64,000 nucleotides of DNA from an uncultured Candidatus Saccharibacteria bacterium. GTDB taxonomy: Bacteria; Patescibacteriota; Doudnabacteria; UBA920. The DNA lies in NCBI GenBank assembly GCA_964474825.1, contig CAYYWQ010000001.1:1033606-1097605 (forward strand). Reading direction: 5' to 3'. Each line of letters begins with the position of its first letter. Within the stretch, counting starts at the first letter, position 1. Position numbers and translations under genes: made by a program. The notes below the pieces were generated by a model. It searched no databases. It saw nothing but the letters and a program-made list of their open reading frames with translations, and was not told where the DNA came from. Shown piece by piece: positions 32,421-57,000 of this stretch.

Positions 32421-32565
32421 TGCCGGCCGCTTTGTCAATGGTGGGTATTGGTGTTAAAATATTATAAGCTAATCAGTAAATCAGCTGATCAGTTAATTAG
32501 TAGAGGGATCCAGTTATGTAGTGCTGATCCGCTGATTAGCTGACATACTGATGCGTTTTCCCTAT

Positions 32566-37299: not shown

Positions 37300-38251
37300 T
37301 TTCCTCCTCTTCCCCGTAAGCGCGGCCTGTTAAGTCCAAGTAGACGTCTTCCAGAGTTGCTGTTTTAACAGTAAAGCCGTAAAAAACAATGTTGTGGGTT
37401 TTTAATAAATTAACAACGGCGGAAATTTTGTCTAAGCTGGTAATTTCCAAAATAACTTTGGGAAAATCAGCGTGGACTTTTTTTATTTCCGGCATTTTAG
37501 AAAAAAGTTTTTCGTCCACCTGGTTGTCCGTAAAAAAAGAAATCTGCGTAGTGTCGGAAAGTCTGTCTATTAGTTTTTTTGGCTCGTCTATTTCCAGTAT
37601 TTGCCCTTGGTCCATAATAGCCACGCGGTGGCAAAGGTATTCCGCCTCTTCCATGTAATGAGTGGTAATAATAATTGTAATGCCGCGGGAATTTATTTTT
37701 TTAATTAACTGCCACATGTCCCTCCGGGCTTTTGGGTCCAGTCCTGTAGTGGGTTCGTCTAAAAACAAAATTTCCGGTTCGTTAACCAGGGAAGTGGCAA
37801 TTGTAAAGCGCTGTTTTTGCCCGCCGGAGAGGTTGGAAAACTCCTCGTGCTCTTTGTCTATTAAATTTACTAAGCCAAGCAGTTCTTGTTTGTCGGCCTT
37901 TAGGTTATAGAAAGAGGCAAAGAGGTCTAAGAGTTCCCATAAACTTAAATGGTGCAGGTATTGGCTGCTTTGAAGCTGAATGCCAATCCGTTTTTTTATT
38001 TCTTCAACCTGTTTTAGGTTATCGAACCCTAAAACTTGCACAGTTCCGGAAGTCTGCGGCTTTAATCCCTCTATAATCTCTAGTGTTGTGGTCTTTCCAG
38101 CTCCATTTGGCCCTAAAATCCCAAATATCTCCCCCTTCTCTACGTTAAAGCTTGTTCCCTTAACTGCCTCAAAAACCCCTTTGCCTTTTGGCAGGGGGTA
38201 AGTTTTTTTAAGATTTGTAACTTCTATAACTTTGTCCATTGTTAAATGCAT
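37292..38251 (-). CDS. ABC transporter ATP-binding protein
   Basis: It has the Walker A GILGPNGAGKTTTLEII, the signature LSGGQKQRFTIA, the Walker B ILFLDEPTTGLD and a C-terminal accessory domain. Confidence 0.85.
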   Translation of the reverse strand: MHLTMDKVIEVTNLKKTYPLPKGKGVFEAVKGTSFNVEKGEIFGILGPNGAGKTTTLEIIEGLKPQTSGTVQVLGFDNLKQVEEIKKRIGIQLQSSQYLHHLSLWELLDLFASFYNLKADKQELLGLVNLIDKEHEEFSNLSGGQKQRFTIATSLVNEPEILFLDEPTTGLDPKARRDMWQLIKKINSRGITIIITTHYMEEAEYLCHRVAIMDQGQILEIDEPKKLIDRLSDTTQISFFTDNQVDEKLFSKMPEIKKVHADFPKVILEITSLDKISAVVNLLKTHNIVFYGFTVKTATLEDVYLDLTGRAYGEEEENE

Positions 38252-38288
38252 TATAGCATTTTGTCTTTTTTATAGGTATAATAATTTT

Positions 38289-40601: not shown

Positions 40602-41380
40602 ACAGCTTTTGCATTTTGCCACAGTGCTTCAAATACAGTTTTGTGCATTTTGTAAATTGCAGGGTGTTCTATGGTCATACTGACAATTTTTCCGGCTTCC
40701 ATGCTAATGTAAGAAATCTTGCCGTCGTAAATGTACATTATGGTGGAAAAGGCCGCGGGCGCCGGTATAACGCGAACCTGGGTAACGTTGGGGTTAAAAG
40801 TTTTAGCGTGCTGCCGCACAAAAGCGGAGTCCACCATAATAATTTTTTTCTTTATGCCTTTAGTTGTCCGCGCTTCCGTAAAGTTTTTGTTAAGTTCAGG
40901 AAATTGTTTATTTAGCGCCTCGCTGTCTATGTAAGAATAAATTTCCGTAGCTGAAGTTAAAGAATCCTCCACGACCTGTTGTGCTCCGTCCAATCCTTCG
41001 AAAAATTTAATTGTTGGTTTGGTTGCCGCGAGTTGATAAAGACTTCTAAGTCCCGGTAAGGTTTTGCCCAATTCTTCCTCCGCCGTTGTAATGGCGGATT
41101 TTTGTTTAGCTAAAAGAAGTTCCAGGTGCTCTGGATGTTTGGCTATAAATTTGGTGGTGGTTTTTGGCAAGTCTTGTTTTTCTACTAATCCTTTGGCTAC
41201 TAAGCTGTCCAGGTGGTAGTAAGCGTTGCCGCGCTTTAACTTGGTGTGGAATAAAATTGGCTTCATGCTTTGCGGACCCAAGTTTAAAAGCAGCTCGTAG
41301 ATTTGGGCTTCGTTTTTGTTGAGGCCTAGTTTTTCCAGGAGGGGGATATAAGGGGATTGTTGTATTTGATTATTATCCAT
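40598..41380 (-). CDS. TrmB-family transcriptional regulator (N-terminal wHTH)
   Basis: The N-terminus KNEAQIYELLLNLGPQSMKPILFHTKLKRGNAYYHLDSLVAKGLVEK matches the TrmB winged-helix pattern. Confidence 0.55.
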   Translation of the reverse strand: MDNNQIQQSPYIPLLEKLGLNKNEAQIYELLLNLGPQSMKPILFHTKLKRGNAYYHLDSLVAKGLVEKQDLPKTTTKFIAKHPEHLELLLAKQKSAITTAEEELGKTLPGLRSLYQLAATKPTIKFFEGLDGAQQVVEDSLTSATEIYSYIDSEALNKQFPELNKNFTEARTTKGIKKKIIMVDSAFVRQHAKTFNPNVTQVRVIPAPAAFSTIMYIYDGKISYISMEAGKIVSMTIEHPAIYKMHKTVFEALWQNAKAV

Positions 41381-41500
41381 ATACCCTTATTATGCGCCCT
41401 TTTTAGAATTTTGTCAAGTTAAAACTGACATTTTACTATTAATTTAAGCCATTTATTTAAAAGAAATATAGAGTTTATATATTATTACATCAGTATATTA

Positions 41501-41529
41501 TTGACATTTTGTCAAATTTAGACTACAAT
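41501..41529 (+). promoter_or_regulatory. Near-consensus sigma70 promoter (TTGACA-N17-TACAAT) pointing into the GC-rich island
   Basis: TTGACA is at 41501-41506, the spacer is 17 nt, and TACAAT is at 41524-41529. Confidence 0.5.
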
Positions 41530-41536
41530 GCGTAGT

Positions 41537-43240
41537 TAACATAAAAACAGCAAAAAGCACCTTTTACAATATATATGACTTTCTGAGGAGAGAGTCGGCA
41601 ATAGGCGCCGAAAAGCCTGGTAAATTAAGTCTTTTTGTCGCAATAAGCGGCTAATTGGTTATCTCTCCCAAAGAAATAGCTTGTTAGCCGCTTTTTTGGT
41701 AGAAGGGGATTTGGAGAAGAATACACCACATATTTCTTCTTCAAGTCTCTCTCTATAAAGAGGAGAGAGCCTGCGCTTAAAAAGAGCAGGTAAAAAATTC
41801 TTTTAAAACCATTTGTCTTGCTCAAAGGTTGGAGTAAGGATTAGAAACCCTAAAACAACCCCGCTCCATGCTCAGCATGGAGAAAGTAGACTTTAGCTAG
41901 AGTAGGTAAGTTACAGTGTTAAGCGCTTCGGCTTACAGGAAGCCGCGGCCCTGACCGCTTACCTATGGACCTAGCAATGAGTGCACCCTTCATAACCCAA
42001 AAGGTTGTGAAGGGAACAGTCATTGTTATAAGTAGAATATAGAATCTAGAAGATAGAATTTAGGAAATAGGTGCGTGCGGAAATTTTTATCGCCTGTGGT
42101 AAATATTTCTGCCCTCGCTACTACAGGAGTAGTGAGGTAGCACCTTAAAATTTTCAAATAAGATTTTAATTTTTGCTTAAGTTCGTCTTAAGCGTATTAG
42201 ATTTTGTCGGCAGCGTTGAGCAGCAAAGCTATGTCTTTGCTTTTTTAAGCTGCCGACAAGCCATGCATCTTTTTGGCGCATGGCAGCAGAAAAGGAGGCG
42301 GATATCGTGGAATACCCGCCGGGCAAGCAATAAAATTGCCGGGGTACAGCGTGAACCCTATCCCAAATTCGCTCGACAACTTCTGTGGCCTTTGCAGAAG
42401 ATCGTATTGATAAGGCAACCGGCAAGCAATTCTTGCCAAAGGAGGGTGGAAATGAAAACTCCACCTGGAAATAGGGGTAACTGGAAGAGGCCCAAAAAAC
42501 CAGCAACCGGAAACCTAGGGTATTAGTTGTCCCTAAGTGGAAGGTAAAAACCCGTCGCCGACAACTAAATGTGCTGCAGGAGTAAGGTAAGACTAGTAGT
42601 TATATTAGTAGGCTTGGATAAGGGCGTATGATCCTGGACTGAGTTAAAAGTATAATGAAGTGCTTATCTGAAACTGCACACATGGCAAGGAAGAGTCCTC
42701 CCTCCAGGAGGTGAGCGAGCTTGGGATAGTATCTCCGGGCCGCCTGCCTGGAGAAACTGCTCTATACCCCGAGGATCCGATGCTTCATGATTTGGGGTGA
42801 ACTTCCAGACGCCCAGGCACTTTGTTTTAGGAGGTGTGTTATGTTGAAACTTCCGTTTTAGCCCGGTCTCTGGATCCGGGCGAAGCCTGCCGCAAGGTAG
42901 GAAAACCAGCAACCAACCTATAGCAACAGATAGCTATGGGAAGGTTTACCCTAGGCCGTGTCTGTATGTTTTGTTAAGTAGTTTACGGAAAGGCGGATGA
43001 TCTGGAACGTAAACGAAAGGCGAGGCATGGTCGTGTGGTCCCGTGCGGCAACGGGACAAGGAAGAAAGTCTCTCCGCGTCTGTGGAGAGGATGGGCGAGC
43101 TCGGGACACAATTCCGCGGCTCGGCCTGTCCGAGTCCGCGGGAGAATGCCCAGAATCTTTCAGACGCCCGAGCGTTTTTGTTGTAAAAATCAAAACCGCC
43201 CGCGGCGCCGGATGATGCGCCAAGGGCAAAGGAGCTTGTC
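41537..43240 (+). other. About 1.7-kb non-coding, hairpin-dense leader / candidate large structured RNA preceding the Ubl-conjugation operon
   Basis: There is no ORF with credible composition. I saw at least ten perfect 5-10-bp hairpins by eye. Two 26-nt direct repeats lie at 42803-42828 and 43158-43183. G+C rises sharply from about 41830 onward. Confidence 0.3.
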
Positions 43241-44308
43241 ATGGTTGAGGTAAAATGGGGTGCAAATGCGGATCGTCCGTATTGGTTTCCCTTTAGTGAT
43301 CAGATAAAAGAATGGCTCTCTAATAACGAGAGCCTGCCAGACACTTTGTTGTACCTGCGCCCAACGTATAAGGAGGGGCAGCAGGAGCAAGTGGCTGGAC
43401 GTTTGGTTGTTGTGCTGGGTCGTGATGATTGGCCGAGCACAAAAGGGACCCTTGAGGCGGAAGGGAGCTTGAAGATTGACTTCATTCCGCAGGGTAATTT
43501 TCTTCGGATTTGGGGGCTACCAAATTGTCCCGACCGGAGAGACGGCGAGGAGGTGGTGAGGATTCTGAGTCGTCTGTTGCCCGAGGTTGCAAAGACTGAC
43601 CCACAAAAAAAACTTGCAATAATGGCAATGGTCTCTGAGGCCTATGTTAAAGAGTGCTCGAAGAGATTTGAAAAAACCCTTGAAGGAACCCGCAAGGCGA
43701 TCAAAGACGGTAACGCAGCCGTGGCCAAGCTCCAAGTGGAGCTCGTGAAAAAGATTCGCGAGACCCGAGGGGCTGAGCGCAAGCTTGAGCAAATGGAGTC
43801 CTCGCGCGAAGCGCAGACCGAAGGATACGCGCAGGAGTTTAATAAACTCCTGCAGGTCCCTAAAGTCCGTAGGGTGGAGGCAAAGGAGGGCAAAGTGATA
43901 GTTTACACCGACGTTCTTTTTTGTACGGATCCCCGGACGGGGATATGTCACGAGATTGGCGCGTTCAGGATTGAACTAGTTGCGGATATGGGGATCCCGT
44001 ACTGGTTTAACTTAACCCGTTCCGTTGACGGGTACAACAATAGAATGCAGGCACCACATATTTACTCGAACGGGCAGGCCTGTCTGGGTAACGCCGCGGA
44101 AATCTTCCCGGAACTCATAGGTAACTATGAGTTTGCGGCCGCAGCCATGGTGGCTATCCAGTTCGTGGAGTCGGTGAACACCGACGACACGGCTGGAAAA
44201 CACATTGACAAGTGGCCGGTGGCGAAGGAGCAACCGGTCAAAATCGCAACCGCAACAAAGGTGGCAAATTTAGTGCCGCCACAACCGTCTTGGAGGAGCA
44301 ATGGCTGA
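43241..44308 (+). CDS. E2-like (UBC-fold) ubiquitin-conjugating enzyme homolog with a roughly 200-aa N-terminal coiled-coil extension
   Basis: The C-terminal segment IPYWFNLTRSVDGYNNRMQAPHIYSNGQACLGNAAEIFPEL parallels the E2 core YPF.PP...F.T.IyHPNI..nG.ICLdiL, with the catalytic Cys in the xCL position. An SD (aaggag) precedes the ATG. Its stop overlaps the next gene. Confidence 0.5.
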   Translation: MVEVKWGANADRPYWFPFSDQIKEWLSNNESLPDTLLYLRPTYKEGQQEQVAGRLVVVLGRDDWPSTKGTLEAEGSLKIDFIPQGNFLRIWGLPNCPDRRDGEEVVRILSRLLPEVAKTDPQKKLAIMAMVSEAYVKECSKRFEKTLEGTRKAIKDGNAAVAKLQVELVKKIRETRGAERKLEQMESSREAQTEGYAQEFNKLLQVPKVRRVEAKEGKVIVYTDVLFCTDPRTGICHEIGAFRIELVADMGIPYWFNLTRSVDGYNNRMQAPHIYSNGQACLGNAAEIFPELIGNYEFAAAAMVAIQFVESVNTDDTAGKHIDKWPVAKEQPVKIATATKVANLVPPQPSWRSNG

Positions 44309-45035
44309 AAAGTTAAGGCGTGAGTGGGGCGGCGCCAAGAAGTTTGCGCCTCATGAATTTTCCTCGCGAGTAGAACTCGCGGGAGGCTTGCCTCGGGTTC
44401 TCGTGACCCGCGATGCGTACGAAGATATGTACTGCATCGTTGACGCGGTCGACAAAGAGGTAGGTTGGCTTGGCGCTGTCCAGCGTCTCGGAAATGATTT
44501 TCTGATCACGGAGGTTTTCCTCTTTGACCAGGAGACGCACGCGACAACGTGTGAGATCACGCCCGACGGCATGGCGGAGTTCGCCATGCAGCTCATGTCG
44601 TCCCGACCGGACGGCATGGAAGTAGCCAACTCAATCCGCTTCTGGGGGCACAGTCACGTGAATATGGGGACCAGCCCTTCGGGGCAGGACGAGACCCAAT
44701 TGCGTGAGCTGGCGGCTTCGTGTGGTGATTTTTTCGTTCGGGGCATTTTGAATAAGTCCGGACGGATGGAGTGGACCATCGTACTTGCTTCTGTTGGCGT
44801 CGTAATCCGCGACGCCGCGTGGGAGCTTTACGAACCCGCCGCCGATGCCCGCCGCCGACAGCGGTGGGAGGCGGAAATCGCAACTAAAGTCCGGGAAAAG
44901 ACCTACCCGCAACCGACCTTCGGGTCGGAACGTCGGTGGTCATCAACGATTATTCCCGGACCGGTCGCCTCCGCGGTCCCGCTCTCCAAGCGGGCACAGC
45001 GGCGGCTAGAGAAAGCGGGCAAAAATGGCCATTGA
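44301..45035 (+). CDS. JAB/JAMM (MPN+) metalloprotease-family protein, a putative Ubl-processing/deconjugating peptidase
   Basis: It has a complete JAMM motif: E (LITEVF) ... HSHVNMGTSPSGQD, which is HxHx7Sx2D. It overlaps both neighbours, indicating translational coupling. Confidence 0.65.
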   Translation: MAEKLRREWGGAKKFAPHEFSSRVELAGGLPRVLVTRDAYEDMYCIVDAVDKEVGWLGAVQRLGNDFLITEVFLFDQETHATTCEITPDGMAEFAMQLMSSRPDGMEVANSIRFWGHSHVNMGTSPSGQDETQLRELAASCGDFFVRGILNKSGRMEWTIVLASVGVVIRDAAWELYEPAADARRRQRWEAEIATKVREKTYPQPTFGSERRWSSTIIPGPVASAVPLSKRAQRRLEKAGKNGH

Positions 45036-45732
45036 TCCGCTTCGGCATCTAAGCGTCTTTTCGCCGCATGCCTTTGGGCAGCGGCGGGTAGACGTAATTG
45101 GCTGCGGGGCCACAGGGTCCCGTATTGTGCTTTCTTTGGCGAAGCTCGGCGTGGAGAACATTCACGTGTGGGACTTCGACGTCGTCGAAGAGCACAACAT
45201 TCCGAACCAAGCGTTCTGGCAGGAAATGCACGTCGTGCACGATTCTGCCAAACCGAAGCTGGCGAAGGTCTCGGCCATGGCCGAGATCGTCGAGATCGCC
45301 ACGGGGACCAAAATCACCGTCCATCAGGAGAAGGTGGACGGCACCCAAAGCTTGGGTGAAGTAGTTTTTCTTCTCACCGACACCATGTTTTCGAGAAAGG
45401 AGATTTGGGAAGGAGCCTTGAAGTTCAAGCTCCGGACCGAACTCTTAATTGAGACCCGCATGGGTGCGGACTCGGGCCGGGTGTATAGCCTGGACCCGAA
45501 TAAGCTCGGCCAAATCAAAGCATACGAGGAGACTCTGTGTTCTGACGAAGAGGCCGAGGTTAGCGCTTGCGGCGCAAGTGTGTCGGTGGGGTCAACCGCG
45601 GAAGTGATTTCCGGACTCGCGGTCTGGCAAATGATTCGATGGTTTTCCATTGAGCAGGGAGGCGACGATGAGCTCGACAACGAGATCATTTTTGGCCTCC
45701 GCCCAATGCTGACCATCAGCAGGAAGTTTTGA
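45025..45732 (+). CDS. ThiF/MoeB-type E1-like activating enzyme
   Basis: It has the Rossmann/ATP motif VDVIGCGATGSRIVLSLAKLGVENIHVWDFDVVEEHNIPNQ, with Gly-rich GxGxxG and acidic DxD, and a downstream Cys-containing block ACGASVSVGSTAEVISGLAVW, which is the E1 catalytic-Cys region. Confidence 0.7.
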   Translation: MAIDPLRHLSVFSPHAFGQRRVDVIGCGATGSRIVLSLAKLGVENIHVWDFDVVEEHNIPNQAFWQEMHVVHDSAKPKLAKVSAMAEIVEIATGTKITVHQEKVDGTQSLGEVVFLLTDTMFSRKEIWEGALKFKLRTELLIETRMGADSGRVYSLDPNKLGQIKAYEETLCSDEEAEVSACGASVSVGSTAEVISGLAVWQMIRWFSIEQGGDDELDNEIIFGLRPMLTISRKF

Positions 45733-45733
45733 T

Positions 45734-46051
45734 ATGGGCTGGCTGGCGGGCCGTAACGAGATAATTCAACTTCGTCTCCAACCACCAAAGCCAACGGCCT
45801 ATGTTAATTTTGGTTCAGGTATTGAGTTCACTGCCGACTTCATTGTTGGTATGACACTTCGCAACCTGATCCAGTTTTTGCAGCAGAACTGTAGCTATCG
45901 TTCTATTCACGGCGATGAAATCCCGTGGTTGCATGACTTCCTGCGAACCGGCGACCTTAAGAATTTCCCGGCGGATTTGGACTATGTTATCCAGCCGGGT
46001 GACAAAATTGTTCTGGACTTAACGAAGTTGTTGAGTCCGGTAAGTAAGTAA
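45734..46051 (+). CDS. Small beta-grasp (ubiquitin-like/ThiS-like) protein without a terminal Gly-Gly
   Basis: It has the C-terminal beta-grasp-like DYVIQPGDKIVLDL pattern. Its start is 1 nt after the E1 stop. It ends ...LLSPVSK, with no GG. Confidence 0.4.
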   Translation: MGWLAGRNEIIQLRLQPPKPTAYVNFGSGIEFTADFIVGMTLRNLIQFLQQNCSYRSIHGDEIPWLHDFLRTGDLKNFPADLDYVIQPGDKIVLDLTKLLSPVSK

Positions 46052-46183
46052 ATGTAGTATAGAGGCCGGCATTGCCGCCCGTCGAATGTAGACGTTAAAA
46101 AATATGGGTCCCAAAGGGATTAAATTTAAAACCCATCCGCAGTTTGTAGAGCATTGGCAAACAGCGAAGACAGGAGTAAAACA

Positions 46184-46966
46184 ATGCGGAGTTTCATTAA
46201 CGTCAGAATCGGCCGGCTCCCCGGTCGGATTTCGGAAATTGTGCTTAATGGCGACCGCACGGTCGCTACCGCGTTGATGACCGCCGGCCTGGACAGCGCT
46301 GGCTACGATATCCGGGTGCAGGGTGCACCCGCGAGCATGACAACCGGACTCAACGAGGGGGACATTGTCCTCCTCGTGAAGAAGATCAAGGGGAACGGCG
46401 GGATTGAGGGCGCAACCTTCGTTCACGTCGGCCGCGTCCCCGGACCCGGTCTTGTCCAGTTTGCACTGGATGAGCCCACGGTCTTCATGGCTTTGTCTGC
46501 CGCTGGTCTCAATCTGGGGCCGGATGAGGTGGTTTACCGCAACGACCAGCTTTCTTCCATCGGGGAACCGGTGGAAGACGGCGACAAGATCGTCGTCCGG
46601 CATCCGATGCCGGCGATGGTCGCGGCTTCGCCGGAATTGCCGTCCGGCTTGCACCAGACTGCGCCGGTAGTTTCTGCCACGTTCGATTTCTCGGCCGTGG
46701 TCGGCACCGACCCGGCCCAGCTCTGCTCCAGCGCGGAACGGCTGACCCGCGAAGCGGAGGAGCTCGAGGCGGGAGCTCGCGCCGCGCTCGCCAGCGCGGC
46801 CGAGAAGAAGGTTGCGGCCTCGGCCCATTGGGCCAAAGCCGCGGCTATCGAGACCGCCAACGAGGCGTTGGCAAATGCCAGCGCCCAGCTCGAAACCCTT
46901 GGGGTTATTCGCCCCAAGGGCGAAGGACGGTGGACTGATATCCGCCGCCTCTTCGGCCTCTCGTAG
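46184..46966 (+). CDS. Tandem beta-grasp (multi-ubiquitin-like) protein with an internal KGNGG and a C-terminal Ala-rich coiled coil
   Basis: Module 1 is INVRIGRLPGRISEIVLNGDRTVATALMTAGL...EGDIVLLVKKIKGNGG, with a diglycine at the module end. Module 2 is ...GPDEVVYRNDQLSSIGEPVEDGDKIVVRHP. The SD (aggag) favours the ATG at 46184 over the track start at 46154. Confidence 0.5.
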   Translation: MRSFINVRIGRLPGRISEIVLNGDRTVATALMTAGLDSAGYDIRVQGAPASMTTGLNEGDIVLLVKKIKGNGGIEGATFVHVGRVPGPGLVQFALDEPTVFMALSAAGLNLGPDEVVYRNDQLSSIGEPVEDGDKIVVRHPMPAMVAASPELPSGLHQTAPVVSATFDFSAVVGTDPAQLCSSAERLTREAEELEAGARAALASAAEKKVAASAHWAKAAAIETANEALANASAQLETLGVIRPKGEGRWTDIRRLFGLS

Positions 46967-47376
46967 TAGACGAGGTGCGCGAAATTTTGTCACCGTCTTA
47001 GCAACAGATGGCGAGACAAGCAGGGGCAGACCTGCAAACATCAAATTAATAAAAAGGAAAATAAAAAAAGGTAAAAAAATAAATCTTCCCGCAAGGGTTG
47101 CCTGAAACCTTAAAGCACCACAGGCGTAAAAGCACGGGTACACTGATCGTAATGTCAACGAGTTTAATAAAATAGGTCTCTGCCACAAGGCGGAGGCCAT
47201 CGAGTCAAGAAGTAAATGGCAGGGTGATGCCCACCTGCCAGCCACGAAGTTGTGGCAAACAAAACGGGACAATGCACCAAGATTGGGGAGAGGTAGACTG
47301 CACACCTACCTTTCCTCTTTCCAATTTAGCGCACAAAATTTTTGTGAGCTGGATTGGGAGGTGAAGTATTAAAAAA

Positions 47377-47622
47377 TTACCAGAACTTCTTTGCCAGTTC
47401 TGCCAGCGCAAGCTGGAGGGCTGGGAAGATTACCGGCAGACGCACGAATGCGTCTGCGGAGCTAAGTACTTTGTCGTCTCGCATGACGACTTGTGTATGG
47501 CTCCGAGTTTGGCCCACGATGCCTTTGGTATTAAGGAAGAAGGCGCGGTCGAAGTCAGGGTCATCGAGAAGTTCGATGTCCTGACCGATGAAGGCCAGGT
47601 TCCGGAAGATGGGGATTGGCAA
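47377..47622 (-). CDS. Small hypothetical protein on the island
   Basis: An 81-aa ORF with an SD (aggaaggg) 9 nt upstream of the ATG on the - strand. It has no recognisable motif. Confidence 0.25.
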   Translation of the reverse strand: MPIPIFRNLAFIGQDIELLDDPDFDRAFFLNTKGIVGQTRSHTQVVMRDDKVLSSADAFVRLPVIFPALQLALAELAKKFW

Positions 47623-47699
47623 GACATGGTCTTTGCCCTTCCTAAAAAATAAAAAGCCCGGTTGGTGGACCGGTTAAATAAAACCGCTAAGCACTCAAA

Positions 47700-47752
47700 T
47701 TTGGGACGAGTGAGTTAACAGTCATTCGTCCCAAATTTATTTATTATTTATC
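47700..47752 (+). terminator. Intrinsic terminator (ttgggacga-N14-tcgtcccaa + T-rich tail)
   Basis: A 9-bp perfect stem at about 47703-47736, followed by tttatttattatttatc. It probably ends the Ubl operon transcript. Confidence 0.4.
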
Positions 47753-47918
47753 TTCAATCACCTGCCGGAATGACGGCTTAAGAGTAGTTGGGGAGCTGTA
47801 TGGTTTAGCCAATTAATTTTGGTACAAATCTCTCTCCTCAAGCGGCTCCTTAATGCTTTTAAACTTTTCATTTCGGCAGTTGGGTGGAGGAAAAATAAAA
47901 AAAACAAAGGTGAACAAA

Positions 47919-48500
47919 ATGTTTAGTTGGTTGTTAAGATGGTTGAACTTGGACAAACCAACGGCCACAGGTGCGGCCGTTGAACAAGTGACGACAGAAG
48001 TTGCGGTCGTCGAAAAACCAAAAACGTCAGAGCCCCCGCCTGCCCCGCGGGAGGAGGCGGACCGGGACACGCATGTACTTAATTCCCAGTATCGCAGCAT
48101 TCGGCCGTTTGTGCCGGCGGCTGAAGTTCCCAAGGCCGTTGTGGCGGCGGATCTTGTGGAGTTTGAGGCTATTCCCGCTGGAGACGGGAAAACGGCGCCC
48201 GGGGATTGCCGACCGACGCGATTCCCCAATGGGGCGATCCTTGAGGTTGTCCAGAAAAGGGAGGGGGTAGTAATGGTGCGGTGCTATGTGCCGTACCACT
48301 ACACCAACAGGAGGTGGTGGCGGCCAGAAAAATTGATGGGTCAAATTTTTTTGATGCCAACAGAGAGATTTTGTTGGCTGGCCCAGCAGAAGTACCCGCC
48401 GGGCCACTGGGCTTTGCGGGACTACCGGGACGAGGTGGCCCGTCGGCAAGCTCAGGGCTTGCTGGATTACATCAACCTGCCCCCGCCTGGGGGCAAATAA
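47919..48500 (+). CDS. Hypothetical protein on the island
   Basis: The start MFSWLLRWL is preceded by an SD (aaggtg). The track start at 47853 has no SD. It is Pro/Ala-rich N-terminally, and I could not identify a domain. Confidence 0.4.
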   Translation: MFSWLLRWLNLDKPTATGAAVEQVTTEVAVVEKPKTSEPPPAPREEADRDTHVLNSQYRSIRPFVPAAEVPKAVVAADLVEFEAIPAGDGKTAPGDCRPTRFPNGAILEVVQKREGVVMVRCYVPYHYTNRRWWRPEKLMGQIFLMPTERFCWLAQQKYPPGHWALRDYRDEVARRQAQGLLDYINLPPPGGK

Positions 48501-48517
48501 ACGAAGCATTCAGTTTT

Positions 48518-48565
48518 GGCCGAAAGCACGCACTTTCGCTTTCGGCCACTTCTTTCAGATTACGA
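48518..48565 (+). repeat. Copy 1 of a roughly 48-nt direct repeat (GC hairpin ggccgaaagc/gctttcggcc + ctttcagattacga), followed by a TTGACA promoter-like site at 48657
   Basis: It is more than 90 percent identical to 50052-50099. Both copies are followed about 80-100 nt later by ctgaaag and a TTGACA -35-like hexamer. Confidence 0.5.
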
Positions 48566-48789
48566 CTCATGTCGCGGTCTGAAAGTTGTCGAGGTTATAG
48601 TTTGGAACATCTGCTTTGTGAGCGCCCTTGCTTGGTAGATGTTCCGCATTTTGGCCTTGACAATAACAGTAGTTTGTGATAAATTAAGTAGTTAAAACTT
48701 AATATTTCTCAAGGGCGCATTTTGCGCCCTTTTTTTGTTTGCCTTTTTCTTTTAGCCCGCAGTGATGGCGGGTTGGAAGAAGGAGGAAT

Positions 48790-49104
48790 ATGGATAAGAG
48801 TGTTTTTGGATTTGTGTCCGCCTTTTTGGTGGACTCGGGATACAACTTGGAATGGAAAACCCAGGAAGGGCGGACATTCGAGGTTTCCGGTGACCCCAGG
48901 TTTCCGGAAATGTATTACGAGGTTTTTGATTCGGCCAAAAAGGTGATCCGTAAGCAGGAAGCGGATTTTGCTTTTGAGGCCGCTTCAGGAGATTTTTTTC
49001 TCTTTCTTTTCTCCGGCGAGGAGAAGAAAGGAGAGTCTTTGTCCAGGGAGCAATTTTTGGACCAGGTGCAGAATCGGTTCCCGGCATTTGTCCGGATCCG
49101 ATAG
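48790..49104 (+). CDS. Hypothetical small protein
   Basis: A strong SD (gaaggagg) lies 6 nt upstream of the ATG. The 104-aa protein is acidic. Confidence 0.45.
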   Translation: MDKSVFGFVSAFLVDSGYNLEWKTQEGRTFEVSGDPRFPEMYYEVFDSAKKVIRKQEADFAFEAASGDFFLFLFSGEEKKGESLSREQFLDQVQNRFPAFVRIR

Positions 49105-49142
49105 GCTAAGATGCTGGTACATAATTTAAAGAAGAAAGCAAT

Positions 49143-50027
49143 TTGAGAAAAGAAGGAGAGGTTTTGACTGTGCCGCGAAAAAAAGGGCCGCAGGCTAAAC
49201 AGAAACAGCGGGAGGCCGACGAACGGCGCAAAAAAGGTACGGCCAAACCGGCTAATGAGTCGGCAAGGGCGTATCTTAACAACAAGGAAATGGCGATGCC
49301 GCTCGACAAGCTGCATCAATATCTTCGTGACAAGAAGGGGTTTAATGTTTCCAGGGCGACCGCCTGGCGCGCCAAAAGGACGGGGTATTTTTATCCGCAA
49401 CACGTGCCGACGTTTGGCGCTAAGCGGATTAAATTGACCCTGGATGAGAGGTCTGCTTCGGTGGATTTTTTGGTCAAGCGGTTTGGCTTTACCCGTCAAA
49501 CCGCCCGGGAAGCCAAGCGGCGTGGGTGGTTTACGGTCGACGTGAACACACGCGGCCGTATTAGGATTCCGGCAGACCGTTATGTTCCGCCGGCGGAGCT
49601 CAAACCTGAGCTGGTGGTGGAAAGGGTAGACCTCACTCAGGAGGAGAGGCAGGCTTTTCCGGATTTTTTGGCAAAGCGGTTCGGGATTTCCCGTCGTACC
49701 GCCGCGGTAGCCAAGGAGCGCGGCTGGTTCAAAGTTTTGCCCGCAATGAGGGGGAAGCTGCGAATTCCCAATGACCGCAAAATGCCGAGCATTTTCCCGG
49801 GGAAAAAGGTGGAGCTGACCACCTCGGAAATGCAGACCAGCCTGGATTTCTTGGTTAATCGGTTCGGCATTCACCGCACTACTGCCGCGGTAGCCAAGGA
49901 GCGGGGGTTCTTTATTGTCATGTCGCAACATATGGGCAAGACAAGGATTCCCGTGAATCGAGTGGTGGGCATGGATGAGACGCGGTATTTCCGTCGCGGC
50001 CGGCCCCCAAAGCCTGGAAAAAAATAA
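49143..50027 (+). CDS. Protein with four tandem excisionase/AlpA-type HTH (HTH_17-like) repeats
   Basis: There are four repeats of about 35 aa: FLVKRFGFTRQTAREAKRRGWFTV...GRIRIP, FLAKRFGISRRTAAVAKERGWFKV...GKLRIP, FLVNRFGIHRTTAAVAKERGFFIV...GKTRIP, and a diverged first copy YLRDKKGFNVSRATAWRAKRTGYF. The real start may be the GTG at about 49170, after an SD (aaggagagg). Confidence 0.5.
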   Translation: MRKEGEVLTVPRKKGPQAKQKQREADERRKKGTAKPANESARAYLNNKEMAMPLDKLHQYLRDKKGFNVSRATAWRAKRTGYFYPQHVPTFGAKRIKLTLDERSASVDFLVKRFGFTRQTAREAKRRGWFTVDVNTRGRIRIPADRYVPPAELKPELVVERVDLTQEERQAFPDFLAKRFGISRRTAAVAKERGWFKVLPAMRGKLRIPNDRKMPSIFPGKKVELTTSEMQTSLDFLVNRFGIHRTTAAVAKERGFFIVMSQHMGKTRIPVNRVVGMDETRYFRRGRPPKPGKK

Positions 50028-50051
50028 GGAGGGGGCATGAGACTTGCAGCA

Positions 50052-50099
50052 GGCCGAGAGCACGCACTTTCGCTTTCGGCCATTTCTTTTAGAATACGA
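50052..50099 (+). repeat. Copy 2 of the roughly 48-nt direct repeat, followed by a TTGACA-N16-TATATT promoter (50132-50159)
   Basis: The match to 48518-48565 is seen directly in the sequence. The promoter hexamers are near consensus. Confidence 0.5.
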
Positions 50100-50399
50100 T
50101 AAGTATCGTGACCTGAAAGAAGTTCTAGTACTTGACAAACCCCCAATTCGTGCTATATTAGGTATACACATTGCACGATTTGGGGATGATATGTGCGCTT
50201 CCGATTCACCCGCTTTAGGCGTAAATATCGGATAAAATAATAAAACCTTAGACCGAAAACATTAAGTTTTCGGTAGGGTTAGTTTGTCGCCAGTTTTTAT
50301 TTTAATGGTAAAAAATCTGATAAACTCTTAATTTTAATAATACCTTTTATTTAAGCCATAAAAGGTATATTTTTAGTGTCTCTGCAACTTTCTTTTGTT

Positions 50400-50491
50400 G
50401 TCATCCCGAGCGACTGCTGAGTGCATCCGAAGCAGGAGTCGAGGGATCCCTCCACTCGCCCTCGGATGCACTCGGGCTCGGTCGGGATGAC
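50400..50491. repeat. Roughly 92-bp GC-rich imperfect palindrome centred on GGATCC, immediately upstream of rpoB (MITE/REP-like element or attenuator)
   Basis: The arms gtcatcccga...gagtgcatccga...gaggga and tccctc...tcggatgcactc...tcgggatgac are reverse complements apart from an internal indel. G+C is far above the surrounding AT-rich intergenic DNA. Confidence 0.5.
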
Positions 50492-50550
50492 ATCTGTAAA
50501 AATTTTTAATTTTTGTTTGTCAATTAATCAACTAATTAAAGGATATATAA

Positions 50551-53500
50551 ATGCCCGCCAAAGCATCAAACGTCGCCTTAGCTAAGCCTGAGCGCAAAAT
50601 CGTCCGCAAGTTTTTTACCAAAGACCACGAAACCAAGTTGCTACCCAACCTTATAGAGGTGCAGCTCGACTCTTATAAATGGTTTTTGGAAAAAGGCCTT
50701 AAAGAACTTTTAGGGGAAGTTACTCCTATTAGAGACTTTACTGGCAAGAATTTAGAATTGTTCTTTGGCGATTACTTTTTTGACAAAACCAAGTACGACG
50801 AATTCCTTTCCCGCGAACGCAACACCACTTTTGAAGCTCCTTTGTACGTGAGCGCTAAGCTTATTAACAAAGTTACGGGCAAAACGAAAACTCAAGACGT
50901 TTACTTTGGCGATTTTCCTTTAATGACCCCGCGCGGAACTTTTATAATCAACGGTGTAGAACGCGTTGTAGTTAACCAGCTTATAAAATCCCCGGGTGTA
51001 TTTTTTACTTCGGAAAATGTCCGCGGAAAAGTTTTGTACGGCGCGAAAATTATTCCTAACCGCGGCGCATGGCTGGAACTAGACACTGACAGCAGCGGCG
51101 TTATTGGCGTAAAAATAGACCGCAAACGCAGAATTCCTATTACAGCTTTAATCCGCGTGTTTGGTTTAACTTCTAACGAAGACATTTTAGCCGCTTTTAA
51201 AGATGTAGACACAGACCCGGACGTAAAATACATTCAATCCACTTTAGAAAAAGACGCTTCCACTAACGCAGACGAAGGTTTTAAAGAAGTTTATAAAAGA
51301 ATCCGCCCGGGAGACTTAGCCACAGTAGACAACGCTAAATCCCTCATCAGTGGTATGTTCTTTAACCTAGAAAGATACGATCTTTCCCCGGTTGGCCGCT
51401 ACAAATTTAACCAACGCTTGCATATAGACGAAAGCCGCGACAACGCACTGCTTCTTTTGGAAGATTTGCTCGCGGTTGTTAAAGAAGTTATTCGTTTAAA
51501 CAACACCCAAGAAACTCCGGACGACATTGACCACTTAGCCAACCGCCGCGTGCGCGCCGTGGGTGAATTAATCCAAACTCGCTTCCGCGTAGGTCTTGCT
51601 CGTATGGCCCGTATTGCCAAAGACAGAATGAGCTTGGCGGATTTAGAAAGCGTAACTCCGGCTCAGCTTATTCATGTCCGTCCTATTGTGGCCACTATGC
51701 AGGAATTCTTTTCCTCTTCCCAGTTGTCACAATTTATGGACCAAACAAATCCTTTGGCCGAACTGGAACACAAAAGAAGGCTCAGTGCCATGGGCCCTGG
51801 TGGTCTTAGCCGTGAACGCGCTGGGTTTGAAGTTCGTGACGTGCACCATAGCCATTACGGCAGGCTTTGCCCAATCACCACTCCTGAAGGACCAAACATT
51901 GGTTTGGTTGCCCACTTGGCTACTTATGCCAGAGTAAATGATTTTGGTTTTATTGAAACTCCTTACCGAAAAGTTAAAAAGGTCGCCAAGAACGACGGCA
52001 AAGACGCGGTAGGGGAAATTGCTTCGTTCGATATTAAAGACGAAAAAGGTAATGTTATTGTAGCTGCCGGAGCGGAAATTTCTGCTACCGCTGCCAAAGA
52101 AATTGCCAAGAACGAACAACTTTTGGAAGTTCCGGTTAAAGCCCGTGTTCTGTTTTCCGAAGTAATGTATTTGGATGCTTTTGAAGAAGAAGAGCTTATT
52201 ATTGGTGCGGCCGGTATTGCCTTTGACGAAAAAGGTTACTTTATAGAGCAGCGTGCTTCTGTAAGACTGCACACAGTGCCAAGTATTGCCGCCACTTCCG
52301 AAATAGACTGCATAGACGTGTCCCCAAAACAAATTATTTCCGTAACCACCTCCCTCATTCCATTCTTGGAACACGATGATGCTAACCGTGCGTTAATGGG
52401 CAGCAACATGCAACGTCAGGCCGTGTCCTGCATTAAGCCGGACGCGCCTTTAGTGGGTACTGGTATGGAAGCCAAAGCCGCGCGCGACAGCGGCACGGTT
52501 GTAGTTTCCGAAGAAGACGGGGAAGTTGTTTCTGTAACCGGCGACAAGATTGTAGTTGTTGGCGACAAAGGCAAAAAGAAAGAGTATCACTTATTAAAAT
52601 TTTTACGTACCAACTCAGCCACGGCTGTTAACCAAATCCCTAGAGTAAACAAAGGCCAAAAAGTTAAGAAAGGCGATTTGCTCGCAGACGGCGCCTCCAC
52701 CGAAGACGGAGAATTGGCTTTGGGACAAAACGTTTTAGTGGCTTTCCTTTCCTGGGAAGGTGGTAACTATGAAGATGCTATTTTGGTTTCTGAGCGCGTA
52801 GTTCAGCAGGACCGCTACAGCTCCATTCATATAGATGACTTTAAAATAGACGTGCGCGACACAAAACTCGGGCCCGAACAAGTTACCCGAGACATTCCTA
52901 ATGTTGGTGAAGAAAAGTTAAAAGACTTAGACGAAAACGGAGTCATCCGCATTGGCGCGCAAATTAAATCCGGTGACATTTTAGTCGGTAAAATTACGCC
53001 AAAAGGTGAGACCGATTTAACCGCAGAAGAAAAACTGCTTCGCGTAATTTTTGGTGAAAAATCCAGGGACGTAAAAGACACTTCCCTTACGCTTCCTCAC
53101 GGTGAATACGGAAAAGTTGTTAACATCCGCGAATTTACCAGGCAGGCCGGGGACAAATTACCTTCCGGTGTTATTCGAAGCATTCAGGTTTCTGTTGCTG
53201 TGCTTAGGAAAATCCAGGTAGGGGATAAAATGGCCGGACGCCACGGTAACAAAGGTGTTATTTCAAAAATTATTCCAGTTGAAGACTTGCCATTCATGAA
53301 AGACGGCCGCGCCGTGGACATTGTCTTAAACCCGCTTGGTGTTGTGTCCCGTATGAACCTGGGACAAATTTTGGAAACCCATTTGGGTATGGCCGCTTAT
53401 AAACTCGGCTACCATGTGGCTACTCCCGTTTTAGACGGAGTCACAGAAGGCGAAATTAAATCGGAACTCAATCGTGCCGGCGTGCCGGAAGACGGTAAAG

Positions 53501-54045
53501 TTGTTTTGTACGACGGAAAAACCGGCGAGGCTTTTGACGAAAAAGTTACGGTTGGTGTTATGTACATGTTAAAACTCCACCACTTAGTAGACGACAAAAT
53601 GCATGCCCGCTCAACCGGTCCGTACAGCTTAATTACCCAGCAGCCACTTGGTGGTAAAGCGCAGTTCGGTGGACAACGTTTTGGAGAAATGGAAGTCTGG
53701 GCTTTGGAAGGTTATGGCGCGGCTCACACTTTGCAGGAAATGTTGACCATAAAATCCGACGACGTAGTCGGCAGAAGCAAAACCTACGAAGCTATTGTTA
53801 AAGGCGAACCAATTAAGAAGCCAAACATTCCGGAAAGTTTCCGTGTTTTAGTTAAAGAATTACAAAGTTTAGGATTAGACGTAGAGCTGCTGGGAGCCGA
53901 CGGCAGCATAACTACTGCGGCGCAGGAACAGGAAATAGTAGTGCCGGGCGGCATGCAAATGCCATCCGCTGTCCCTGACCTTTCTCTGTTTGAGGATGAG
54001 CCAAAGAAAGAGAAAAAGTATAAAAAGGAGAAAAAAAGTAAATAG
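50551..54045 (+). CDS. rpoB: DNA-directed RNA polymerase subunit beta
   Basis: It has canonical RpoB blocks (FFGDYFFD..., [61 protein letters not shown]). Confidence 0.97.
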
Positions 54046-54097
54046 CGATAAGGCAATAGTCAATCTAAGAACTTATCACTAATCACTATATACAATT

Positions 54098-57000
54098 ATG
54101 TTAACTCAAACAGAAGATTTCAAAGGTGTCCGCATTAAACTGGCCAGCCCGGAAACCATTATGCAATGGTCTCACGGCGAAGTTACCAAGCCGGAAACCA
54201 TTAACTATAGAACACAGCGTCCGGAAAAAGACGGTCTTTTTGACGAGAAAATTTTTGGTCCTATTAAAGACTGGGAATGTTACTGTGGTAAATACAAGCG
54301 CATTCGCTACAAGGGGATTGTTTGCGACAAGTGTGGCGTAGAAGTTACAAAATCCAGTGTGCGCCGTGAACGCATGGGCCACATTAAACTGGCTGTGCCT
54401 GTTGGCCACATTTGGTTTTTGCGCGGCGTTCCTTCCCGCTTAGGGTTGGTGCTTGATTTAGGCGTGCAGGAATTGGAAAAAGTTGTTTATTTTGCTTCCT
54501 ATATTATTACAGAAGTAGATGAAGAATCCAGGCTGCAGACTTTGGAGCAGATTGAACGCGAATTTAAGGCTAAGAAAAAAGAAATAGAAGACAAGTTTGA
54601 AACTTTAATTGCCAAGACCAGAACCGCAGTCCAGCAAAAAGCCGGCAACAAAGACAAAGATTTGGTTGCCGCGGAAATTGATTCTGAAGTTACTAGACTC
54701 AAAGACGCCTGGAGCAAAGAACTGGAAGCTTTGGAAACCATTCGCGACCAAGCCCGCTCTGAACTTAAAGCCATTAGAAAAATGCAGGTTATTAGCGAAC
54801 TGCAATACCGCGACTTGTCTTTAAAATACGGACCGGTGTTTAGCGCTGGTATTGGCGCCGAAGCTTTAAAAGGACTTTTAGAACAAACTAATTTAGAACA
54901 GCTGGCTCAGGACTTGCAAACTAGTTTGCCGGAACTTGAAGGCCAGGCAGAACGCAAAGTTTTAAAGCGCCTTAAATTAATAAAATCTTTAATCAATGCA
55001 GGACTCCGCCCGGAATGGATGTTAATTACCATGCTGCCGGTTATTCCTCCGGATTTGCGCCCTATGGTGCAGTTGGACGGTGGCCGTTTTGCCGCATCTG
55101 ACTTAAACGATTTATATCGCCGCGTCATTAACCGTAACAACCGCTTAAAGAAACTTTTGGAAATTAAAGCTCCGGAAGTTATTACCAGAAACGAAAAAAG
55201 AATGCTCCAGGAAGCTGTGGACGCGCTTATCGACAACAGCATTCGCCACGGTAAAGAAGTAACGGCGTCAACTGGGCAAAAAAGAAAACTGCGTTCCTTG
55301 GCAGACATGCTTAAAGGTAAGCAGGGTCGTTTCCGTCAGAACCTTTTGGGTAAACGCGTAGACTATTCCGGACGTTCCGTAATTGTCGTAGGTCCTCACT
55401 TAAAATTACACCAGTGTGGTTTGCCGAAAATGATGGCCTTGGAATTATTCAAACCATTTGTTATTTCCAAATTAATTGCCCGCGAATACGCGCATAACGT
55501 AAGAAGCGCTAACCGCCTTATTGAACAGGCTCGCACTGAAGTTTACGACATCTTGGAAGAAGTTACCAAAGACCACTACGTATTACTTAACCGCGCTCCA
55601 ACCCTGCACCGCTTAGGTTTCCAGGCGTTCCAGCCGGTATTAATAGAAGGAAAAGCCATTCAGCTTCACCCCATGGTCTGTGCCGCTTTTAACGCTGACT
55701 TTGACGGTGACCAAATGGCCGTACACGTGCCCCTTACCGAACTTGCGCAAAAAGAAGCGCGCGAAATTATGGTCTCTGCCCATAACTTGCTTAAGCCTGC
55801 CAGTGGCGACCCGGTTATGACTCCTGACAAAGACGTAGTTGTAGGCTGTTACTATATTACCCGTATGCACCCAGGTGTTAAGGGCGAAGGAAAAATTTTC
55901 AGCAGCCCCGGCGAAGCCATAATGGCTTACAATAACAAGTATGTCCACATCCAGGCCAAAATTAAAGTTCGTTTGGAAAATGGCGAAATGGTGGAAACTT
56001 GTGTTGGCCGCTTAATTTTTAACAAAGTTGTACCTCCGGAACTAGGGTTCCGCAATGAAAATTTTGACAAAAAGAAACTCCAGGCTTTGGTCCGCGAAGC
56101 TCACCGCGCATTGGGCAACGAACGTACCGCGGAATTAATCGACGAAATTAAGCGCACGGGTTTTTACTACATGAAGCAGTCCGGTTTGTCCTGGGGTATG
56201 GATGACTTAATGGTTCCCCAAAGCAAGCACGCATTGTTCTTGGAAGCGGACAAAGAAGTAGACGCTACTTACCAGCAATACCGTGAAGGTCTTTTGACTG
56301 AAGAAGAACGCAAAAACCGCGTGGTGGAAATTTGGGCAGACATTTCTGAACAAATTGCCAAGAGTGTTACCGGCACAGTTACGGAATACGGTTCGGTTAA
56401 CTATTTCGTATCTTCCGGTGCTCGTGGTAGTTTTTCCCAAATTACCCAAATGTCCGGTATGAAAGGCTTGGTGGTAAACCCGGCCGGAGACGTTATTGAA
56501 CTTCCTGTTAAAGGCAGCTTTAAAGAAGGTCTGGCTGTGTTGGAATACTTTATTTCCACTCACGGTTCCCGAAAAGGTATGTCCGACACCGCTTTAAGAA
56601 CTGCCGATGCCGGTTACTTAACAAGACGTTTAGTAGACGTAGCCCAGGACATTGTTATTAACGCGGAAGACTGCGGTACGGAAGAATTTGATTACATTAC
56701 TTTGGAAGACAGCAAGAAAATGGGTAAACCATTTGACCGCCGTTTGTTCGGCCGCGTGTCCGCGGAAACAGCCAAAGACAAAGACGGTAATGTCCTAATA
56801 GAAAAAAACCAGGGCATAGACGACCAACAGGCAAAGGCTATTGTGGAAGCCGGCCTTACGGAATTAAAATGCCGCAGCGTGCTTAAGTGCAAACTGTCAC
56901 GCGGTATTTGCCGCTTGTGCTATGGTTACGACTTGGGTTTTAACGACATGGTCAAATCCGGAGCTGCCGTGGGAATTGTGGCCGCCCAGGCCATTGGTGA

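Follow-up and report, generated by a model that had tools for sequence, protein, structure and literature searches.

The locus analyzed here raises the question of what a GC-rich palindrome is doing in the AT-rich DNA just upstream of rpoB. It lies in a stretch of 64,000 nucleotides (hereafter the window) of contig CAYYWQ010000001.1, from an uncultured Candidatus Saccharibacteria bacterium placed by GTDB among the Doudnabacteria, and an initial annotation had read it as a palindrome of about 92 bp, centred on GGATCC, that could be either a mobile hairpin, of the miniature inverted-repeat or REP (repetitive extragenic palindrome) kind, or an acquired attenuator. We find that it is a head-to-head doublet of two hairpin units of 48-50 nt each. 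We further consider it quite likely that these units are Ssn-related motifs (SRM), or TGTC-tagged REPs, of a subfamily that circulates in Patescibacteria, that the doublet was inserted in a tolerant part of the rpoB leader, and that it is recognized as single-stranded DNA (ssDNA) by a nuclease of the Ssn type.

Anatomy of the palindrome

The sequence stands as it was first quoted, and the near-perfect palindrome proves to be one nucleotide longer on each side, spanning 94 nt at positions 50399-50492, with TGTCAT and ATGACA at its two ends and the central GGATCC at 50444-50449. Its GC content of 0.62, compared with 0.22-0.38 in the flanking 100-nt windows, bears out the remark that its composition is unlike that of its surroundings. 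The arms had also been described as reverse complements apart from a short indel. They measure 50 nt (left) and 48 nt (right), which explains the indel, and what distinguishes them is the inner stem, where the differences are compensatory (CTGCT/AGCAG on the left, GCCC/GGGC on the right), together with one G/C position, designated S/S', which reads G..C in the left arm and C..G in the right. Both arms follow one and the same formula, TGTC-AT-CCC-GA(S)CGA-inner stem-GAGTGCATCCGA-inner stem'-GAGT(S')GA-GGG-AT-C.

Judged by its sequence, its folds and the match of both halves to the covariance model R1 introduced below, the whole element (50399-50492, no strand assigned) is a doublet of two such units, arranged head to head with their tags pointing outward and fused at GGATCC without any spacer. 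The left unit (50399-50448, plus strand, 50 nt) comprises the TGTC tag, the outer stem ATCCC/GGGAT, the segments GAGCGA...GAGTCGA, an inner stem of 5 bp, the apical GAGTGCATCCGA and a 3' C; it is included in alignment A2 and scores 66.7 bits against R1 (E 3e-18). The right unit (50445-50492, minus strand, 48 nt), which in its own reading direction is TGTCATCCCGACCGAGCCCGAGTGCATCCGAGGGCGAGTGGAGGGATC, scores 79.9 bits (E 2.5e-22) and, according to the identity table, agrees at 48/48 positions with units on four contigs of the Patescibacteria metagenome-assembled genome (MAG) H52-bin092_1.

Folded as RNA, the palindrome reaches -63.9 kcal/mol on either strand, with z scores of -7.3 and -8.0 and none of 200 shuffled sequences folding as well; folded as DNA it reaches -36.1 kcal/mol (z -7.5). 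Each arm can also fold alone, at -15 to -18 kcal/mol, and when both are present in one strand the long inter-arm hairpin is thermodynamically favoured. Rfam at its gathering thresholds gave no match in the whole window, and a search at E values of up to 10 over 50030-50560 returned only spurious microRNA hairpin models and an insignificant match to L10_leader (E 7).

The repeat family and its GIY-YIG partner

A search pattern in which the conserved blocks were fixed and the inner stems left free matched 11 loci in the GTDB species-representative genomes, a collection from which the host genome itself is absent. All 11 belong to Patescibacteria MAGs, namely three Doudnabacteria MAGs, one Saccharibacteria MAG, H52-bin092_1 (four contigs) and MFD03726.bin.1.241 (three contigs). 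The pattern also matched 20 contigs from soil or peat metagenomes, with 42-52% GC and differing flanks, which brings the number of loci with a unit beyond the window to 31, some genomes holding several copies. The tags point outward in the window element and in nearly all of these 31 loci. Viral contigs gave no match for a 20-mer or for the specific pattern; the bare 14-mer GTCATCCCGAGCGA matched them 125 times, mostly by chance and inside genes, and about two dozen of these matches are simpler relatives of the unit, with the layout GTCATCCCGAGCGA-short hairpin-CGAGGGATC. A literature search by sequence string recovered unrelated primers only.

Of the cells in the alignment of 20 distinct units, 93% are paired, compared with 29-65% in slid controls and with 0 of 500 shuffles performing as well, and double-sided changes occur at 6 of the 12 pairs, a strong covariation that marks the unit as a hairpin under selection. 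At S-S', 16 of the 20 units have CG and 4 have GC, and none is mixed; pair 5-49 is A-U and pair 6-48 is U-A in 19/20 each, and in one unit the second outer pair has changed from U-A to C-G. The C at position 4 of the tag is invariant and the 3' C is found in 19 of the 20, with the tag being TGTC in most units, CGTC at two loci (L145 and L149) and TTCC or TGCC in some genomes of the candidate phyla radiation (CPR). Certain inner stems do not obey Watson-Crick rules (CGAC/GGAG or GGAG/CGAC) and may be read as C-G, G.A, A.G, C-G. The conserved GA/GA positions would similarly correspond to tandem sheared G.A pairs, and a stable hairpin would then be formed on the tag strand only.

The covariance model R1 was built from these 20 distinct units and finds 81 units in 39 CPR loci. 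Its 62 distinct sequences, in an alignment that was fitted to R1 and leans toward the model, have 96% of cells paired and compensatory changes at 10 of the 12 pairs. Single-sided (wobble) cells amount to only 3 of 610, and this near absence fits pairing at the level of DNA. As for the further copies envisaged by the initial annotation, many exist in other Patescibacteria genomes, but within the 64-kb window there is only the one doublet: R1 with its filters off detected the two arms, the next best score being 10 bits, and mismatch searches, an inverted-repeat scan and regular expressions run over the window found no copies beyond them.

Elsewhere the units can be dense. At least 8 of them are spread over 11 kb of one contig (L155), in the spacers among rseP, proS, mreB, mreCD and a PBP gene, and another contig (L138) has five; solo units exist as well, for example in L130 and at 2712, 4562 and 7483 of L138. 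A minority of units lie in frame inside long open reading frames (ORFs). Among them are a doublet in the gene for tRNA-guanine transglycosylase (TGT, PF01702), seemingly at the same site in L128 (1131-1227) and L150 (597-717), and a solo unit in the inter-domain linker of FolD (L130, 2089-2136), copies that resemble the Rickettsia palindromic elements. No direct repeat or target-site duplication was seen in the flanks of about 30 copies inspected. Some CPR doublets are nested in larger repeats, forming mosaics similar to the bacterial or neisserial mosaic elements (BIME/NIME) in the flanks of L129, L131, L135 and L151 and in L133, L143, L152 and L154; among the larger structures are GGACTTACGCG...CGCGTAAGTCC, an outer palindrome, and copies of CCTCGCAGCTCTGCTGCGGGG that lie on the flanks.

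At one place in L155, a tags-outward pair encloses not a spacer but a 95-aa ORF, which encodes a GIY-YIG domain (PF01541, E 1.4e-13) and whose protein has homologues that are common in CPR. Among these homologues, those that were fetched show the same bracketing: it is repeated in L172 and L173, which are syntenic (rseP-gene-proS), and in L162/L164, from a different organism (COX2-gene-COX1). These GIY-YIG ORFs are 94-96 aa long, the plus-strand unit ending some 10-13 nt before the ATG and the minus-strand unit starting 8-25 nt past the stop codon, and the units that bracket them share the CCCGA(S)CGA and GAGTGCATCCGA motifs with the units of the window. With a 94-aa protein of N. gonorrhoeae that is flanked by NTS repeats, the L155 protein shares 48% identity (E 6e-30), and a tblastn search of plasmid and chromid records revealed homologues in Rhizobium, Sinorhizobium, Shinella, Sphingobium, Novosphingobium, Azospirillum, Neisseria, Aeromonas and Planktothrix. 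Six loci were opened, among them those of Azospirillum, Sinorhizobium, Aeromonas, Novosphingobium and Planktothrix, and in all six, hairpins with a CGTC or TGTC tag stand on both sides of the gene; in Azospirillum it sits between sufB and sufC with units CGTCATCCCCGCGAAGGCGGGGATCCAG, and in Neisseria the repeats are dRS3/NTS. The Planktothrix homologue (plasmid NZ_LR882964.1, 18447-19516; L178) is located between an MmeI-type restriction-modification gene and the DISARM gene drmA, with clusters of TGTCATTCTGAGTGAAACGAAGAATC units on either side. A weak tblastn match to Ssn at 27717-27815 of the window was set aside, as it falls in a 225-aa ORF without GIY-YIG-like sequence, no Pfam scan of that ORF having been made.

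The partnership of a nuclease with a hairpin repeat has already been published (Chenal et al. 2025, Nat Commun, PMC11893778), and what is new here is the variant architecture of the unit and the host phylum. Ssn proteins are single-domain GIY-YIG proteins of about 94 aa (cd10448). Their target in Neisseria is the NTS repeat CGTCATTCCCGCGMAVGCGGGAATCYRG, within which dRS3 lies, and more generally they bind SRMs, hairpins of 20-50 nt (PMC11893778). The proteins bind ssDNA of the correct strand only, not double-stranded DNA or RNA, and cut a few nucleotides upstream of the tag; in the NTS, cleavage depends on the three nucleotides (GTC) that lie 5' of the palindrome, and binding on the C that lies 3' of it (PMC11893778). 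According to the same study, 42% of the ssn homologues surveyed are flanked on both sides by SRMs, the NTS-ssnA-NTS arrangement is called IS-like (IS, insertion sequence), and in N. meningitidis the system lowers the integration of transforming DNA that carries the NTS (PMC11893778).

Like SRMs, the units described here are hairpin repeats with a defined orientation: a (C/T)GTC tag stands at the 5' side, the stem starts with A-T and then T-A, and a C directly follows the palindrome. The published rule of orientation is a 5' HGTC tag and a C after the palindrome, and both window arms read TGTC-AT...AT-C; as inverted repeats of 48-50 nt the units also lie within the stated 20-50 nt. Flanking of ssn on both sides is observed for the subfamily (L155, L172, L173 and L162/L164), so that the repeat-ssn-repeat layout around a single-domain GIY-YIG gene of about 95 aa is present in CPR contigs, though not in the window itself, and the near absence of wobble pairs fits recognition of ssDNA. 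They differ from SRMs in that the stem is broken by three conserved GA/GA positions and the apex carries the conserved 12-nt block GAGTGCATCCGA, in being longer and more interrupted than the NTS, and in residing in Patescibacteria, which the main text of PMC11893778 does not mention.

A second body of work concerns the CGTC-tagged REP superfamily (CGTC-1 to -4), which has Neisseria dRS3 and Rickettsia RPE-4 and RPE-6 among its members. It describes repeats in which the tag is often TGTC, CCTC being a further variant, and A-T pairs open the stem; most are joined head to head in dimers, and some copies are intragenic (Di Nocera, De Gregorio and Rocco 2013, BMC Genomics, PMC3733652). The two units of a dimer can form separate hairpins or a single long stem-loop, there are heterodimers, and no associated enzyme gene or transposase was reported (PMC3733652). 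Our family resembles these REPs in its TGTC/CGTC tag, in the A-T nature of the first two stem pairs, in a short 3' tail, in the prevalence of head-to-head dimers and in the existence of in-frame copies, here in TGT and FolD. However, theirs are units of about 25 nt with an 8-9-bp stem and a 4-5-nt loop, found mostly in Alphaproteobacteria, whereas the stem here is a composite of 5+2+4-5 pairs plus G.A positions with an apex of 8-12 nt, and the unit is about twice as long. Because the tag, the A-T pairs, the 3' C, the dimer layout and the bracketing of ssn agree, but the published search string and stem dimensions do not, we file the window units as a divergent CPR subfamily of SRMs and TGTC-tagged REPs.

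The rpoB leader and the competing explanations

The element ends 58-59 nt before the rpoB ATG at 50551, close to the 60 nt first given. Outside it, on the plus strand, the leader comprises a sigma-70-like promoter at 50132-50159 (TTGACA-16-TATATT, TG-extended, matching 11 of 12 consensus positions), located by a scan and by alignments with relatives; a native AT-rich hairpin, ATACCTTTTAT / ATAAAAGGTAT, at 50340-50368, with perfect arms of 11 nt each (50340-50350 and 50358-50368) followed by a T-run; and the AAGGA ribosome-binding site with the rpoB ATG at 50539-50553, neither of which pairs with the element in a fold of the whole leader. Lying downstream of the mapped promoter, the element is presumed to be inside the rpoB 5' untranslated region, where it folds autonomously at -64 kcal/mol and leaves the ribosome-binding site unsequestered.

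Homologues of its RpoB place the host among the Patescibacteria (CPR), and we compared the rpoB loci of eight relatives whose RpoB proteins are 85-89% identical. The promoter and the leader motifs ATACACATTGCACGATTTGGGGATG and CCCGCTTTAGGCGTAA are common to most of them, and the AT-rich hairpin (CCTTTT...AAAAGG with its T-run), which the initial annotation had rightly pointed out, is kept in all eight. The GC-rich palindrome, in contrast, is absent from the rpoB leader of every one of them, and since these relatives otherwise share the leader, it is an insertion rather than a conserved leader element. What the initial annotation had named as the counter-case to mobility, namely a unique element conserved in the rpoB leaders of relatives, is therefore not what is found, the palindrome being a member of a dispersed family. 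Conservation of the leader ends about 15 nt past the AT-rich hairpin and the doublet begins about 15 nt further on, in a variable stretch; the boundaries of the insertion are obscured because the relatives' leaders diverge exactly there, and to invoke a TCTG duplication with a 14-nt extra segment on the left would be only a guess.

At the same position of the leader, after the AT-rich hairpin, three relatives carry GC-rich palindromes that are unrelated to the doublet: L161 (about 1205-1275, -45 kcal/mol), L003 (about 5860-5975, -41 kcal/mol) and L160 (about 1735-1775, -16 kcal/mol), an example being TCGCGGATACGC...GCGTATCCGCGA at -45 kcal/mol. Four of the eight (L002, L005, L006 and L159) have no comparable GC-rich hairpin at that position. 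The spot is either a permissive hotspot for insertions or one selected for hairpins. In the window, the leader (50132-50385) also holds a hairpin ACCGAAAAC/GTTTTCGGT at 50252-50274, in addition to the AT-rich hairpin with its T-run (50340-50375); it may be a leader or attenuator of rpoBC that awaits characterisation in this CPR clade. In L006, the rpoB-rpoC spacer is unusually long (540 nt) and contains a family doublet at 9605-9845, whose outer stem is of the TGC/GCA type, whose apex is again GAGTGCATCCGA and whose spacer measures about 170 nt.

How might such a doublet behave? By analogy with Neisseria, each unit would be a DNA hairpin forming only on the strand that reads TGTC-AT...AT-C, and, when exposed as ssDNA during transformation, replication or repair, it would be bound by a cognate Ssn of about 95 aa with a GIY-YIG domain. 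Cleavage a few nucleotides 5' of the tag would, for a doublet with its tags outward, place one cut outside each end, on opposite strands. We infer such recognition and cleavage in the present organism, along with the mode of spread and the neutrality of the element for rpoB expression: the doublet may have entered the non-conserved stretch that follows the promoter, the conserved leader and the AT-rich hairpin, whether through insertion or through recombination, and would most likely be a tolerated passenger whose side effect is a very stable hairpin in the rpoB mRNA leader. Any effect on rpoB is probably incidental.

Several observations weigh against this explanation. The published SRM string, HGTCWYN(0-2)YYVSBRHN(0-5)WNVSBRGN(0-2)RNCYNB, has no match in the window on either strand; as to controls, the NTS and the Azospirillum units match it and an S. 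meliloti unit flanking an Ssn homologue fails, and the string serves as a heuristic for searching rather than as a definition in biological terms. Likewise, the units do not have the 8-9-bp stem and the 4-5-nt loop of CGTC REPs. An Ssn homologue is absent from the 64-kb window and from the fetched loci of the relatives. With one doublet per 64 kb, and one more in about 100 kb of relatives (the L006 spacer), the family is sparse in this lineage, where it could be a relic. Our own search pattern imposed the conserved blocks of alignment A2, which leaves the free positions alone as evidence. The unrelated GC-rich hairpins of the three relatives, finally, leave room for an RNA-level role at that position.

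In E. coli, the rpoBC leaders are known for the rplL-rpoB attenuator and intrinsic terminators. The doublet is similar to the rplL-rpoB attenuator in that it puts a strong stem-loop into transcribed DNA immediately ahead of rpoB, but it differs in lacking a U-tract, in not being conserved among relatives and in belonging to a genome-wide repeat family; the conserved AT-rich hairpin with its T-run is the better candidate for an attenuator role. More generally, an RNA-level regulator of rpoB, whether acquired or convergent, that acts as attenuator, RNase III site or 5' stabiliser and is kept for that reason, appears unlikely to us. The position of the element inside the presumed transcript, between promoter and ATG, its autonomous fold, the hairpins of L161, L003 and L160 and the doublet in the rpoB-rpoC spacer of L006 would all suit such a role. 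Nevertheless, a scan of 49900-50700 found no terminator-like site, and no U-tract follows the stem on either strand, its 3' neighbour being AUCUGUAAAAAUUUUU. The ribosome-binding site is free, half of the relatives have nothing comparable at that position, and the family occupies arbitrary intergenic sites as well as in-frame sites in TGT and FolD; the acquired attenuator of the initial annotation accordingly finds no support. Moreover, the pairs almost never pass through G.U, and the characterised partner enzyme ignores RNA (PMC11893778).

The remaining rivals concern the origin of the doublet. A classical REP doublet forming a hairpin (REPIN), mobilised in trans by a REP-associated tyrosine transposase (RAYT, a Y1 HUH transposase), would also consist of two inverted hairpin units, and dispersed non-coding doublets of this kind together with a repeat-flanked single-copy enzyme gene are indeed features that the two systems share (Bertels and Rainey 2011, PMC3116915; Nunvar 2010). 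L006 even encodes a PF01797 Y1_Tnp protein 2.2 kb upstream of rpoB, and one phage contig has both a family doublet and a Y1 gene. However, the tag is TGTC instead of GTAG, tblastn with the Y1 protein placed no copy next to any of about 80 CPR units, the Y1 gene of L073 is flanked by a different repeat (GCGCAGGCTTCAGCCTGTGG), the gene really bracketed by the units encodes a GIY-YIG protein, and association with a transposase was not reported for CGTC-tagged REPs (PMC3733652). The RAYT association being absent here, we have rejected the Y1 transposase as partner, a candidate that is largely refuted, and hold a REPIN to be very improbable. In the phage-like L073 (1200-2800), the truncated Y1 transposase-like gene that is flanked by GCGCAGGCTTCAGCCTGTGG... 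lies 1.3 kb from a simple TGTC-type doublet. A conventional miniature inverted-repeat transposable element (MITE), that is, a deletion derivative of a DDE IS with terminal inverted repeats and a target-site duplication, is hardly plausible. It would account for TG...CA termini that are inverted repeats and for a small, AT-flanked, dispersed element, but not for the lack of a flanking direct repeat in about 30 copies, for units that occur singly, or for a covarying hairpin within each arm, which a plain terminal repeat does not need; between inverted units no transposase ORF is found, only the GIY-YIG ORF, and no IS with these ends was seen. The mobile hairpin of the initial annotation consequently survives as a REP-like element, dispersed at many unrelated Patescibacteria sites and absent from orthologous leaders, and not as a MITE in the strict sense, for which target-site duplication and parent IS are wanting and the arms are separately structured. 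The last alternative is an assembly artefact, for instance a chimeric fold-back, or else a palindrome formed by chance. Libraries that were amplified or sequenced as long reads can indeed generate long perfect palindromes, but the independent Logan assembly SRR14271365 is base-for-base the same over 42939-55342 of the window, palindrome included, which is why we do not take it for an artefact; the two arms differ in sequence, each matches the family in more than 30 other contigs, and with z scores of about -7 to -8 the probability of this last alternative is negligible.

Surroundings and significance of the doublet

Insertions recur upstream of rpoB in this clade. In the window, about 12 kb of DNA (38232-50100) separate the rpoB promoter from a minus-strand ABC-transporter gene (37292-38251), a distance of 250-900 bp in relatives. 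The right-hand 7 kb of it, 43241-50100, has 52-60% GC in a genome of about 42% GC and encodes a ThiF/E1-like protein (45025-45732, PF00899, with weak PADLOC 'E1-E2' matches) among neighbouring ORFs without a family match; it looks like a horizontally acquired ubiquitin-like-conjugation or defence island. This island was considered and dismissed as the source of the doublet: it ends near 50100, the conserved leader intervenes, and it contains no units. The Logan contig begins at 42939, near the left edge of the island, and the preceding 1.8 kb or so (41400-43240, from a TrmB-like gene to the island) show no convincing long ORF, no tRNA and no Rfam match. Imperfect palindromes of short simple motifs at 2825-2892 and 32467-32541 (TAGTTAGTAGTAAG... 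and AGCTAATCAGTAAATCAGCTGATCAG...) recall heptamer-like tracts that accompany family units in some viral contigs. In the relative L007 (1-5300), a Cas12a-Cas4-Cas1-Cas2 operon, a CRISPR array and an rve-type IS are found upstream of rpoB.

For the biology of rpoB, the finding is an ordinary one, and in annotation the element should be entered as a repeat, an SRM or TGTC-tagged REP doublet, and not as an rpoB riboswitch, attenuator or non-coding RNA gene. Its interest lies with the repeat family. The partnership of an Ssn nuclease with a hairpin repeat is extended to the CPR, whose members have tiny genomes and are thought to rely heavily on DNA uptake. It is also evident that the published SRM string misses this longer, G.A-interrupted type of unit, and surveys based on that string therefore under-count the family. 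A CPR Ssn, whose nuclease activity is predicted, together with its sequence-rich 48-nt hairpin could enrich the panel of site-specific ssDNA nucleases.

It is conceivable, albeit doubtful as it stands, that Patescibacteria possess an extended and mobile SRM class of their own, with units of 48 nt, G.A interruptions and the GAGTGCATCCGA apex, which co-evolves with the Ssn proteins of the CPR, and that the doublet either marks a recombination end-point of the island or tunes rpoBC, the recurrent leader hairpins then reflecting selection. Active mobility of such a class would be suggested by the 48/48 identity across unrelated genomes together with the in-frame copies in TGT and FolD. If this were true, the doublet would be more than a passenger: it could be a signpost for the cleavage of ssDNA, marking the end-point of the tract that brought the 7-kb high-GC E1/ThiF island to its place just upstream of the rpoB promoter; alternatively, the leader hairpin of -64 kcal/mol would tune the expression of rpoBC.

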